Shown here: positions 34,366-37,750 of the stretch, one piece after another
How positions within the stretch are numbered: the stretch's first letter is position 1
How the letters are laid out: the number at the start of each line of letters is the position of its first letter
DNA from: an uncultured Chloroflexia bacterium
GTDB taxonomy: Bacteria > Chloroflexota > Dormibacteria > Aeolococcales > Aeolococcaceae
Length of the DNA stretch: 64,000 nt
Direction of reading: 5' to 3'
NCBI GenBank assembly: GCA_963697585.1
Contig: CAVOOO010000009.1
Location: 471,295 to 535,294 of the forward strand
Translations under genes and position numbers: made by a program
The notes under the pieces: model-generated
Databases searched by the model: none
Seen by the model: only the letters and a program-made list of their open reading frames with translations
Told to the model about the DNA's origin: nothing

Positions 34366-36471
34366 TCAGCCCGTGCTGCTCGACGACGAGACCGGGGCGC
34401 GGGCCACGAACGTCTCGACGATCTGGATGCGCGAGCTGGAGATCGGCATGAAGAAGAGCTGGAGGGGCGTCTCGTCGACGGTGACGCTCTGCACGTCGGA
34501 GATCTGCTTCCTGACGATCCCGGCGACCGACCCGGGATCGCGCCCGGTGAGCTGGCCGCGCAGCTGGCCGAGATCGATCGAGGGGCGGTAGTAGTCGACC
34601 CCGCTCACCGAGAGCGCGAAGGTGCCGTCGCTGCCGGCCTCGATGATCTGCAGGTTGTTCAGGCTGAGCTGACCCGGGACCAGGCCGTCGCCGGACGGGA
34701 GGTTGGTGGAGGCCTTGAGGTCGGCGAGCACGTCGGCCTGGACCGAGGCGGGGTTGTAGAGCGTCTCCTCGGCGTTCATGGTCACCGTCACCGTCTCCGC
34801 CGCCATCACCGTGCCCGCGGTGGCCGGGGGAAAGGTGCTGGGGCTGATGGTGTAGGTGATGCTCTTGCCGTTGCCGCCCGGGTCGATGGCGGCCCGCTCA
34901 CCTCCCGACTTGGTCTGCAGGTCGGACTCGGCCTGATTGCCGAGCTGGGTCTCGTACTGGCCGATCTCCTCCTGCCAGTTGGAGATGTCGGACGAGCTGG
35001 CCACGGTCTCCGTCGAGGCCGCAGCGCCGTTGGTCAGGGCACTGGGATTCTCGACCTGGAGCTGTTCCTCGGCGCAGATCTGGTCGCTGTTGCACTCGGG
35101 CCAGTCGTCGATCGCCCCCTGAGCCACGTTGCCGCTGGTTCCCGGGTTGAGTGCCTGCACCGCCACGGGATTGCTCCAGACACCGCCGGGGGGAAGGGAA
35201 ATGGCCGTGGTCTGGGTGACGACGAACGATATCGGAGACGCACCCGATGTCTGGAACACATCCCCCATCGGGACGCTTCCGGTTGCACCGCTTTCGTAGC
35301 AGGACGTCGGCGCTGTTCCGACTTGGCACAGGCTTCCAGGTTGTAGCCTGAGTTCCACGGTGCCAGTCGCCGCCACCGCCGGGACCGCCTGGCTTCCAGT
35401 GGGGGTGGCCTGGAAGGTCTGCATGCCGGTGTCGCTGATCACCTTGGTGAGCACGTAGTTGGGCTGGTCGGCCTGAGCGGTCACCGACGTCCCCTGGATG
35501 GTCGGGTTGACGGTCAGCGGCTGCTCGGCGATGGTCACGGTCACCGTGGCCGAGGTGCCGAGGACCAGGAAGAGGACGATCGCGACCACCACCAGCCCGG
35601 CGCCGATCCCGTAGAGGGCGCGGCGGTTGCGGAGCAGGCCGCGGATCCCGCCCGGGGCGGGGGGCGGCGGCGCCCCACCGCCGGCAGCCCGGCTCGGGGG
35701 CGCGGACGCCCGCGTCGGAGGTGCGGCCTGCGGCGGTGGCTCGACGGCGGCGGATCCCGCCCGGGCGGCGTATGCGTCCGGGGCCCGGCCGGCCGCCCAT
35801 GGCGGCGAAGCCTGGTCCCATTCGGCGGTCTGGGTCGCGGTGGTCCAGGGGCTCCGACCCGGCGGTGGGATCGGCGAAGCGGGCGGCGGCGACTCGGTCC
35901 CGGCTGTCCCGACCCCGCCGGGCGGGGGGACGGGGGCGGCCCAGGGGCTCTCCCGGGGCGCGGGCGGAACCCCGGCGGCGGCGAGCAGGGCCGGGTCGCG
36001 GAACGTGCCCGCGCCCGGGAGCGGGCTCACCGGAGCCGGCCAGCCGCCCGCGCCGGACGGCGGGGCCGTCCGCGGCACCGAGCCGTCCGGCTCCGGGCCC
36101 GGCGCGCCGGCTCGGGGCAGGAATGGCGCCACTGGCCGGGGCGGGGCCTCGCTATCCCGGAAGAGGGCCTGCCCGGGACGGCGCGCCGCCACCGGCACGC
36201 CGCCGTCGTAGGCGGCCTCCGAGCTGTAGACGCCGATCCCCACCCCCCGGGCCAGCTCCTGCACCCGGGCGTCCGGGGTGATCAGGGAGGTGGTCAGCCC
36301 CCGCTTCATGGCCACGCTGCGGAGCAACCGGAGGTTGAGGGTGGTCTGGAAGGCCTGCGCCCCCGCGGGGACGACCAGGCCGACGTCGTCGCCCGGGTCC
36401 GCGGCCTGGACCTTGCCGGCGAGGTCCGAGACGTCGTCGTCCGGGCCGACGTAGATCAGCCTCTTGGCCAT
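34366..36471 (-). CDS. 701-aa bitopic membrane protein: about 95-aa cytoplasmic domain, Pro-rich linker, one TM, about 395-aa Ser/Thr-rich ectodomain (baseplate-J/gp47-like patterns, unverified)
   Basis: MAKRLIYVGPDDDVSDL...GLVVPAGAQAFQTTLNLRLLRSVAMKRGLTTSLITPD. The TM is ALYGIGAGLVVVAIVLFLVLGTS (nt 35551-35619). The ectodomain contains ATGTVELRLQPGS, GTSGNVAQGAID and VENPSALTNGAA. Its ATG lies 13 nt after the FtsA-like stop, with GAGG 8 nt upstream. Confidence 0.75.
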   Translation of the reverse strand: MAKRLIYVGPDDDVSDLAGKVQAADPGDDVGLVVPAGAQAFQTTLNLRLLRSVAMKRGLTTSLITPDARVQELARGVGIGVYSSEAAYDGGVPVAARRPGQALFRDSEAPPRPVAPFLPRAGAPGPEPDGSVPRTAPPSGAGGWPAPVSPLPGAGTFRDPALLAAAGVPPAPRESPWAAPVPPPGGVGTAGTESPPPASPIPPPGRSPWTTATQTAEWDQASPPWAAGRAPDAYAARAGSAAVEPPPQAAPPTRASAPPSRAAGGGAPPPPAPGGIRGLLRNRRALYGIGAGLVVVAIVLFLVLGTSATVTVTIAEQPLTVNPTIQGTSVTAQADQPNYVLTKVISDTGMQTFQATPTGSQAVPAVAATGTVELRLQPGSLCQVGTAPTSCYESGATGSVPMGDVFQTSGASPISFVVTQTTAISLPPGGVWSNPVAVQALNPGTSGNVAQGAIDDWPECNSDQICAEEQLQVENPSALTNGAAASTETVASSSDISNWQEEIGQYETQLGNQAESDLQTKSGGERAAIDPGGNGKSITYTISPSTFPPATAGTVMAAETVTVTMNAEETLYNPASVQADVLADLKASTNLPSGDGLVPGQLSLNNLQIIEAGSDGTFALSVSGVDYYRPSIDLGQLRGQLTGRDPGSVAGIVRKQISDVQSVTVDETPLQLFFMPISSSRIQIVETFVARAPVSSSSSTG

Positions 36472-36484
36472 TCGCCCGGCCTCA

Positions 36485-37746
36485 TCACACCTTCATCGCC
36501 TTCATGACGCGCCGCATCAGGCTCCCGAGCGGCTGATCGGCGTCATCTTCGAGGGACACCGCATGATACGCAAGCCCCATCGGCGTCACGTCCTGGCTGC
36601 CGACCAGCAGACCCGTCGAGTCGTGGATGCCCTGCACGTCGTCCGGGCCCAGCACCTTGATGGTGGGGGGACGGCTCATCGAGAGCATCTCGGTCCAGTC
36701 CAGGGCCCGGAGCTGCTCGCTCACCTCGGGCAGGGCCGATCCCCCACCGGCGAGGTAGACCGCGGGCGGCACCGGCTCCTTGCCCGAGAGCTCCTCCAGG
36801 GTCAGGGCGACCCCCTGGGCCAGCACCTCCGCGGTGGGCTCCAGGGTGCTGCGGGCCAGCGCGTCCTGCTCGGCGGGGAGCCGTCCCTCGGCGTGGGCGA
36901 GCTTGAAGCGCTCGGCCTCCTCCAGGCTCATCCCGACCTCGTTGGCCAGCCGCCGGGTGAAGGAGCGGCCGCCCAGGGCGAACATCCGGATCGCCTCGAT
37001 CCCGCGCCGGACCACGGCGATGTCGGTGGTCCCGCCGCCGACGTCGACGTAGACACCGCCGAACTCGTAGACGTCCTCGGTGGCGCAGCCCCGGGTGAGC
37101 GCGTAGGGCTCGGCCACGGTCGCGACCAGCTCCAGGTCCAGCTCCTGGGCGATGGTCTGCAGCGCCCCGATGTGGGTGAGCGGGGCGAAGGTGTTGAAGA
37201 CCGAGATCTCCAGCACCTGGCCCTGGAAGTCGAGCGGGTTGGTGACCGCGTAGCCGTCGATGTGCACCGCGGTGATGCTGCTGTGCACCAGCTTCACGTT
37301 GACCTCGGCCACCCCCAGCTCATGGGACATCTGGCGCACCGCCTCCTTGAGGGCGCGGCGCTGCACCGCCTGGAGGGCGGTGGCGATGTCGGCCTGGGTG
37401 ATCCGGGCCTGGGGCTGCGAGCGCGGCATGGTCATGGTGGTGCTGAAGCCGCGCACCTGCTCCCCGGCGATGCCCATCACCGCCTGCCCCGGGATGGTGC
37501 CGCACATATCCTCGGCCTCGGTCAGCGCCCGGTCGCAGTTGTCGATCACCCCCTGGATGTCGGCGACCGCCCCCGACTGCATGTCGGAGAGCGACTGGCG
37601 CACCTTGCCGACACCGATGACGATGCCGGTGCCCTCCTCGCGCTTGACCACCAGCGCCTTGACGAACTCGGTGCCGATGTCGAGCACGGTGTAGTGGCTG
37701 TGGAACTCGCTGCGCCGCCGCAGCATGGTGAACTTCTTGCGCGGCA

Positions 37747-37750
<4 letters not shown>
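36485..37750 (-). CDS. FtsA-like actin/ASKHA-fold ATPase with C-terminal amphipathic helix
   Basis: YTVLDIGTEFVKALV (phosphate 1), GGVYVDVGGGTTDIAVV (phosphate 2), VYLAGGGSALP (adenosine), a middle region colinear with the FtsA 1C insert, and the tail LGSLMRRVMKAMKV. Its ATG overlaps the alaS stop (ATGA 37747-37750). Confidence 0.8.

Follow-up and report, generated by a model that had tools for sequence, protein, structure and literature searches.

Pairs formed by an actin-like protein and a bitopic membrane protein, such as FtsA-FtsN, PilM-PilN and MreB-RodZ, are central to bacterial division, pili and wall growth, and RodZ is functionally tied to wall synthesis enzymes, in some species including MltG. 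Here we describe two adjoining minus-strand genes in a 64-kb stretch of DNA from an uncultured Chloroflexia bacterium (contig CAVOOO010000009.1, positions 471,295 to 535,294; termed the window in the following, with positions counted from its first nucleotide) that encode such a pair, with a partner unlike those of the known systems. The upstream gene, located at 36485..37750, codes for an actin-fold ATPase of the FtsA/PilM class of 421 amino acids (aa), as judged from Pfam and NCBIfam profiles, an AlphaFold2 (AF2) model and a tree. The downstream gene, at 34366..36471, codes for a bitopic protein of 701 aa with a cytoplasmic head, a disordered tether, one transmembrane (TM) helix and a baseplate J-like outside domain, referred to as the large protein. 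We consider it somewhat more probable than its opposite (roughly 0.55) that the two proteins constitute a conserved cellular, non-phage module, which by analogy with the known pairs would act on the cell envelope as a transmembrane scaffold composed of an actin-like protein and an ectodomain.

The distribution of the pair speaks for a module. A word-indexed search with the large protein returned only 51 relatives, all of the Dormibacterota type, and an exhaustive profile search with the same protein, at thresholds of E<=0.001, E<=1e-10 and E<=1e-30, yielded 5421, 2992 and 273 cluster representatives, respectively, which are mostly full-length with 520-620 aa. Named members belong to Limnocylindrales, Ktedonobacteraceae and the cultured Halanaerobiales Natroniella and Orenia marismortui. 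As the large protein has no stretch conserved enough to serve as query for a genome scan, an alignment of the FtsA-like protein was searched against one genome per GTDB species, and 80 loci were annotated, which fell into two sharply separated sets. The first set of 35 loci (29-51% identity; one partial match of 74%) comprises Dormibacterota, Limnocylindria, Chloroflexia, Saccharibacteria, Peribacteria, Moranbacteria, Dojkabacteria, Natroniella and one metagenome-assembled genome labelled Bdellovibrionales. Wherever enough downstream DNA was present in these loci, a homologue of the large protein follows the FtsA-like gene, mostly with alaS upstream and ruvX, the most constant downstream neighbour of the pair, behind it. 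None of the 45 loci of the second set (23-29% identity; among them Roseiflexaceae and Dehalococcoidales) has the large protein, and nearly all with readable downstream DNA have ftsZ directly downstream. With metagenome loci counted as well, the large gene was found in 34 of 34 loci with at least 600 nt of downstream DNA and was directly adjoining in 32 of them (further examples of the pair are L001, L003, L004, L086 and L087), so that the linkage is conserved far more widely than could be told from the letters of the window. Dormibacterota, Chloroflexota, the Candidate Phyla Radiation (CPR)/Patescibacteria and Halanaerobiales have inherited the two genes together, in most cases within the alaS-ruvX(-mltG) housekeeping operon, and the pair is not a lineage-specific insertion. 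The phyletic pattern of CPR, Chloroflexota and Dormibacterota matches the rooted phylogeny of Coleman et al., in which CPR and Chloroflexota/Dormibacterota are sister groups; the copy in Halanaerobiales could have arrived by transfer or reflect an older Terrabacterial trait.

For one member of the CPR, published genetic data are available. The complete genome of Southlakia epibionticum ML1 contains, in this order, SEML1_0657 (alaS), SEML1_0656, SEML1_0655, SEML1_0654 (RuvX) and SEML1_0653 (MltG) (Wang et al. 2023, PMC10633639, Tables S1/S2), which is the order alaS-actin-like-baseplate J-like-ruvX-mltG of the window, with genes of similar size. SEML1_0656 (1284 bp) is annotated as 'pilus assembly protein PilM' and SEML1_0655 (1671 bp) as 'baseplate J/gp47 family protein' (PMC10633639); their orthology to the window genes is based on gene order, size and annotation, together with other Saccharibacteria loci that match the profiles. 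In transposon insertion sequencing (Tn-seq), SEML1_0655 was called NE/ES/ES (NE, non-essential; ES, essential; normalised reads 373, 34 and 24) and accordingly ranked as class II essential, and SEML1_0656 was called NE/NE/GD (2427, 660 and 221), a growth deficit (GD). Both were flagged as core and Patescibacteria-enriched families, and the pair appears in the supplementary tables only and not in the main text (PMC10633639). The pair matters for fitness in the one CPR bacterium that is genetically tractable.

Several observations weigh against a joint function of the two proteins. About 3 kb separate the two genes in two genomes of Nanosyncoccus (L033:2369-8218 and L039:2066-8026), and in L033 they are even on opposite strands. 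Insertions are tolerated much better in SEML1_0656 than in SEML1_0655, and the essential call for the latter could in part be a polar effect on the overlapping, essential ruvX. Furthermore, the large protein has a folded head and not a short N-terminal peptide of the FtsN/PilN type, and the analogy to these systems may fail in detail. Some of these points would also suit an alternative in which the pair is co-inherited merely through a conserved operon while its members act independently, the large protein as a surface, adhesion or wall-binding protein and the actin-like protein in the service of another partner. Besides the different Tn-seq calls, independent functions would be in line with the finding that the large gene and ruvX still adjoin in both Nanosyncoccus loci, where the FtsA-like gene has moved, and with unequal evolutionary rates, cross-phylum identities being 37-51% for the ATPase and 18-27% for the large protein. 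However, the pair stays together in CPR loci without neighbouring alaS and ruvX, where it is located beside ddl, proS, RNase J or enolase, and likewise in Ktedonobacteraceae (L087), where it follows alaS and ruvX is not adjoining. In addition, the head of the large protein is conserved although it lacks an enzymatic signature, which suggests a binding role. We thus regard mere co-inheritance as rather unlikely.

The FtsA-like protein had been described in the initial annotation as an ASKHA protein with all three nucleotide-binding signatures, a middle region resembling the 1C insert of FtsA and a C-terminal amphipathic helix, and each of these features was recovered. The phosphate-1 motif (DIGTE, at residue 24), the phosphate-2 motif (DVGGGTTD, at 236) and the adenosine motif (LAGGGSALPE, at 333) are present and are unchanged in 20 homologues. 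In Pfam, the protein matches FtsA with 46 bits and PilM_2 with 34.5 bits, and there is a weak match of residues 96-136 to SHS2_FTSA; in a sequence search of the PDB, FtsA was the top match, at only E=9e-10. The AF2 model (mean predicted local distance difference test, pLDDT, 86; predicted template modelling score, pTM, 0.85) is matched best by FtsA structures (7q6i_D, E=5e-29, TM score 0.83 when normalised to the target, about 400 columns) and aligns to these as an actin fold in which a 1C (SHS2) subdomain replaces 1B. PilM structures rank second after those of FtsA (7q6i, 4a2a, 3wqt), and EutJ and MreB much lower. Residues 409-421 (36488..36526, minus strand) are predicted to form a cationic amphipathic helix ending in LMRRVMKAMKV, which the AF2 model shows as helical from 409 to 420. 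These last 11 residues lie at the 97th percentile of hydrophobic moment within the protein and carry a net charge of +4, and a tail of this kind occurs in 34 of 36 clade members (median 99th percentile, median charge +3). It is a putative membrane-targeting or partner-binding tail.

This likeness to FtsA raises the question of whether the gene might be an ordinary divisome ftsA that was relocated beside alaS, with a neighbour of no relevance. Homologues carry the JGI and NCBI labels 'cell division protein FtsA' or 'FtsA domain-containing', and FtsA is, as outlined above, the best structural match. Against the TIGR01174 (ftsA) profile, however, the protein scores 103.6 bits, below the cut-off of 175.85, compared to 368-429 bits over the full length for four ftsZ-linked FtsA proteins, three of them from Chloroflexota. 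Its match extends from residue 21 to 292, corresponding to profile positions 3-259 of 371, and that of six further module proteins from five lineages (79-127 bits) again ends near position 260. The FtsZ tail reportedly binds to subdomain 2B of FtsA (PDB 4a2a), which presumably is contained in the part of the profile left unmatched. In a neighbour-joining tree with midpoint rooting, the module proteins form one monophyletic group and the ftsZ-linked FtsA proteins another, with identities of 28-81% inside the module clade and 17-28% between this clade and canonical FtsA. There is no ftsZ within 7 kb of the module clade's loci among those annotated in the scan, and, as had been noted from the start, none in the 64-kb window, which also holds no second FtsA-like gene. 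Finally, the neighbour is conserved across phyla, and Southlakia possesses, in addition to SEML1_0656, an essential FtsA (SEML1_0174) together with FtsZ (SEML1_0175) (PMC10633639). Because the gene product remains below the TIGR01174 cut-off, falls into a separate clade and, in a complete Saccharibacteria genome, occurs alongside ftsA-ftsZ, it is very improbable that the gene is an ordinary ftsA. Judged by sequence, it represents a lineage apart from ftsZ-linked FtsA, with a partner of its own.

Another alternative would be a role in a type IV pilus (T4P), Tad or competence machine, with the FtsA-like protein as a PilM-like alignment component and the large protein in place of PilN/PilO. The PilM_2 score (PF11104) is above its cut-off of 27 bits, SEML1_0656 has been named PilM, one outside domain of SEML1_0655 was classed like the pilus-binding domain of phage g3p, 4eo0 is also a weak Foldseek match of the large protein, and the window contains TadE, a TadG-like gene and a prepilin peptidase. 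The PF11104 match, however, covers profile positions 185-295 of 340 only, the score for TIGR01175 (pilM) is 22.5 bits compared to a cut-off of 133, and FtsA structures fit the model better than PilM. Neither pilB, pilC, pilT nor a pilin gene was found beside the pair in any locus with annotated neighbours, in Southlakia and TM7x both the T4P loci and pilM are located elsewhere (SEML1_0104 being the T4P PilM of Southlakia; PMC10633639), and the partner has neither a PilN-like N-terminal peptide nor an outside domain of the PilN/PilO type. A role in a pilus machine is therefore decidedly unlikely. As to the pilus-related genes themselves, TadE and the TadG-like gene lie between hisS and relA (44129-47679), where the G+C content is lower (0.68 at 46-50 kb), and the prepilin peptidase gene (31192-31956) comes after aroE; genes for a pilus ATPase or platform protein were not seen in the window.

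The architecture of the large protein, in the initial annotation a compact head, a Pro-rich linker, one TM segment and a large ectodomain, was confirmed by an AF2 model built with 15 homologues. The cytoplasmic N-terminal domain (residues 1-97; 36181..36471, minus strand, as are all segments of this gene) is predicted to be an alpha/beta fold of four beta-alpha units (pLDDT 81-90). A motif of this head, (Q/H)-(S/T)-x-x-N-x-(R/K)-L-L, is kept from Dormibacterota to CPR. The head has no match in Pfam or in a profile search of the PDB, and Foldseek gave generic alpha/beta matches only. In Southlakia, the corresponding domain of SEML1_0655 (residues 6-105) was classed as SpoIIaa-like with a probability of 0.888, followed by a beta-barrel, a g3p-like domain and a gp6 C-terminal domain III (structure-based assignments, Table S2 of PMC10633639). 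An hhalign comparison of our head with an approximate sequence of B. subtilis SpoIIAA gave a probability of 0.13. The head is followed by a tether of about 188 aa (35617..36180), which is rich in Pro, Ala and Gly (48 Pro in the 187 residues 98-284) and, based on its composition and a pLDDT below 50, is predicted to be disordered (residues 98-282 in the AF2 model), and by a single TM helix (residues 286-305; 35557..35616) that is preceded by RNRR on the cytoplasmic side. AF2 places the helix at 283-303, with the hydrophobic core at 286-305. The extracytoplasmic part (residues 306-701; 34369..35556) is multi-domain and modelled with confidence from about 305 to 690, including a 29-residue helix at 493-521; all four Cys residues of the protein reside in this part. 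In about 30 loci the layout is constant: the head measures about 92 aa, the tether 33-198 aa and the outside part, beyond a single TM helix, 350-425 aa. The versions in Ktedonobacteraceae (L087:6001-8877, P0302; P0276), with 830-960 aa, are longer because their cytoplasmic tether comprises several hundred residues; head and outside domain are kept. Three loci have the large gene broken up into at least two open reading frames (ORFs) (L005:11355-12882, L028:8223-9865 and L037:7054-9730); these may be frameshifts or pseudogenes and are more likely sequencing or assembly errors.

For the outside part, a likeness to baseplate J/gp47 proteins had been suspected from sequence patterns, with the protein as a whole thought to be unplaceable in a characterised family. 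The former was substantiated and the latter had to be given up. By Foldseek against the PDB, the outside part is similar to a wedge protein of cyanophage A-1(L) (8kea_d, E=8e-7, 374 columns), with further wedge matches in phiCD508 (9gb2), phi812 (9euf) and T4 gp6 (5iv5), and in BFVD to proteins named baseplate J-like (E=2e-9, up to 426 columns). Global TM scores against baseplate proteins are low since the domains are arranged differently. In Pfam, Baseplate_J (PF04865) matches only weakly (14.6 bits compared to a gathering cut-off of 21.1; E=0.021); some homologues do pass, such as that of Natroniella with 33 bits and others with precomputed PF04865 marks, and databases name homologues 'baseplate J/gp47 family protein'. 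By its fold, the outside part belongs to the baseplate J/gp6 superfamily, a placement that leaves the cellular, membrane-anchored version unexplained. One might also think of the large gene as a remnant of a prophage or contractile injection system, which the fold of the outside part and the database naming would suggest. We give this almost no credence: sheath, tube, gp25-like or spike genes were found in no locus, the gene has a fixed housekeeping position across phyla and a G+C content that matches the surrounding genome, the added head and TM helix are kept among the full-length sequences inspected, which make up most of the 150 top-ranking of 5421 matches, and there is a fitness effect in Southlakia.

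A cellular module of the two proteins, the reading we favour, might operate as follows. The actin-like protein would sit on the inner face of the membrane by means of its tail and, by analogy with FtsA-FtsN, PilM-PilN and MreB-RodZ, bind the tethered cytoplasmic head of its partner. Binding by the ATPase may then determine the location or the oligomeric state of the outside domains and thereby position or cluster them. Gp6-type proteins are said to self-associate in phage baseplates via a helical core and C-terminal dimerisation domains, and lateral assembly outside the membrane is plausible because of this; by the same analogy, the outside domains of the large protein could self-associate through their long helix and C-terminal domains. 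Such a scaffold would most likely act in wall growth, division or surface organisation. An envelope role would fit the location of the proteins, the fitness data of Southlakia and the wall-related neighbours mltG and ddl.

It might further be speculated that the pair is a third, ancient cytoskeletal system of the FtsA/PilM class in the clade of CPR, Chloroflexota and Dormibacterota, in which a membrane-bound actin-like polymer organises a surface ring or lattice of wedge-like proteins for wall growth, division or surface architecture. We consider this extended version doubtful. If it were true, a cellular envelope protein and the wedge proteins gp6, J and TssF of phage tails and injection systems would have a common ancestor, and the CPR-Chloroflexota-Dormibacterota clade would be marked in its gene content by the module.

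The surroundings of the pair are those of a housekeeping locus. The window derives from a Candidatus Dormibacterota genome with 73% G+C; most of the window itself has a G+C content of 72-77%, and the closest relatives of its proteins are from genomes named Candidatus Dormibacteria or Dormibacteraeota. The genes of the minus strand are, in this order, relA, TadG-like, TadE, hisS, an RsbW-like kinase, a sigma factor, alaS, the FtsA-like gene, the large gene, ruvX, mltG and aroE, followed by the prepilin peptidase, two GT87-like genes, aroC and more housekeeping genes, which also make up the rest of the window. The two genes are therefore, as the initial annotation had it, inserted into an alaS-ruvX-mltG block, and both ORFs and their junctions agree with that description: the stop codon of alaS (37747..40500, minus strand; Pfam tRNA-synt_2c, 527 bits; the true start is probably downstream of the first ATG of the ORF) overlaps the start of the FtsA-like gene in the sequence ATGA, and a 13-nt spacer containing GAGG separates the stop of the latter from the ATG of the large gene. 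Another 20 nt lead to the start of ruvX (YqgF; 33911..34345, minus strand; Pfam RuvX, 131 bits), the stop of which is overlapped by the ATG, at 33914, of mltG (YceG; 32886..33914, minus strand; Pfam YceG, 220 bits). A scan of 31-42 kb for promoter and terminator consensus sequences found none, which is compatible with, and no proof of, a single transcript. The proximity to MltG, to which significance had been attached initially, did not hold up as meaningful. In the Dormibacterota-type locus L003 (11761-13055) aroE directly follows ruvX without mltG in between, and in L087 as well as several CPR loci no mltG was found next to the pair. Since the position of mltG varies, and MltG of Southlakia is non-essential in Tn-seq (PMC10633639) with the large gene being class II essential, the adjacency is inherited synteny and not a specific link.

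Some further features of the locus and of related loci were observed. Just upstream of alaS, on the minus strand, are genes for an RsbW/SpoIIAB-like kinase (HATPase_c_2; 41430-41921) and a sigma-70 family factor (40615-41739), which are also present in the Dormibacterota-type loci L001, L003 and L004; a separate STAS antagonist gene was not seen near them. The idea that kinase and sigma factor act on a STAS-like head of the large protein was dropped, given that such a neighbourhood occurs only in loci of the Dormibacterota type and that the STAS assignment is unconfirmed. The pair of the Halanaerobiales is located at the same point of a Bacillus-type gene order, alaS-ireB-[720-aa gene]-pair-ruvX-DUF1292-...-mltG. 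The gene between ireB and the FtsA-like gene (L086:4492-6654 in Orenia, L029:4716-6875 in Natroniella) encodes a 720-aa protein that belongs to no Pfam family and in which a signal peptide and an outside domain of about 350 aa precede a polytopic C-terminal half; as neither the window nor any other locus contains a homologue, it was rejected as a core part of the module. Between the prepilin peptidase gene and aroC, two adjoining genes for GT87-like polytopic glycosyltransferases (27333-30726) are accompanied by an unusually high AT skew (0.37 at 28-30 kb). A long ORF at 24453-26690 with shikimate kinase and 3-dehydroquinate synthase domains is an apparent aroK-aroB fusion, which is likewise called as a single gene in L001 and L003.

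The genes themselves are already annotated in databases and are listed in one supplementary table. Our literature searches found no described function of the pair and no description of the pair as a module, of its distribution outside CPR or of its distinction from FtsA and PilM. What has been recognised here is a further system of an actin-like ATPase and a bitopic partner, with a modest chance of something more distinct. The family is large, with its 2992 cluster representatives at E<=1e-10, and old, being common to CPR, Chloroflexota and Dormibacterota. The labels 'FtsA', 'PilM' and 'baseplate J/gp47' are misleading and hide the pair: surveys of FtsA with loose criteria in these phyla will mix the FtsA-like protein with the divisome protein, and virus-detection tools may read the baseplate label as a phage signal.

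Among the described systems, the pair resembles FtsA on the side of the ATPase. The actin fold, the 1C-type insert, the ATP motifs and the C-terminal amphipathic helix are common to FtsA and the FtsA-like protein, and FtsA, too, has a bitopic partner acting on the outer side of the membrane, FtsN. In contrast, nearly all canonical FtsA hits with readable downstream DNA adjoin ftsZ, which the FtsA-like gene of the module never does, and FtsN offers a short peptide to FtsA, whereas the large protein offers a folded head of 95 aa. In gene arrangement the pair resembles PilM-PilN(-PilO), where the gene of an FtsA-like ATPase is also located directly upstream of that of its bitopic partner and the ATPase would hold this partner from the cytoplasmic side, as is proposed here. 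PilN, however, binds PilM via a short conserved N-terminal peptide, while the large protein starts directly with a folded domain, and the outside domain of PilN/PilO is different from the baseplate-like one. To our knowledge, PilM has no C-terminal membrane helix. The layout of the large protein, in turn, is reminiscent of MreB-RodZ, in which a membrane-bound actin-like protein binds the folded cytoplasmic N-terminal domain of bitopic RodZ, and in which a disordered linker connects this domain to one TM helix, with a beta-rich domain outside. Nonetheless, there is no sequence or fold relation between the two pairs; matches to MreB are weak and the head of the large protein is not a helix-turn-helix domain. 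The wedge proteins gp6, J and gp47 (PF04865), finally, are alike in the fold of the whole outside part over 370-430 aligned columns. A gp6/J wedge protein is, however, a soluble particle protein encoded in a tail cluster, whereas the large protein is anchored by a TM helix and carries a head in the cytoplasm, and its gene belongs to a housekeeping operon, with housekeeping genes and no tail genes as its neighbours in every locus.

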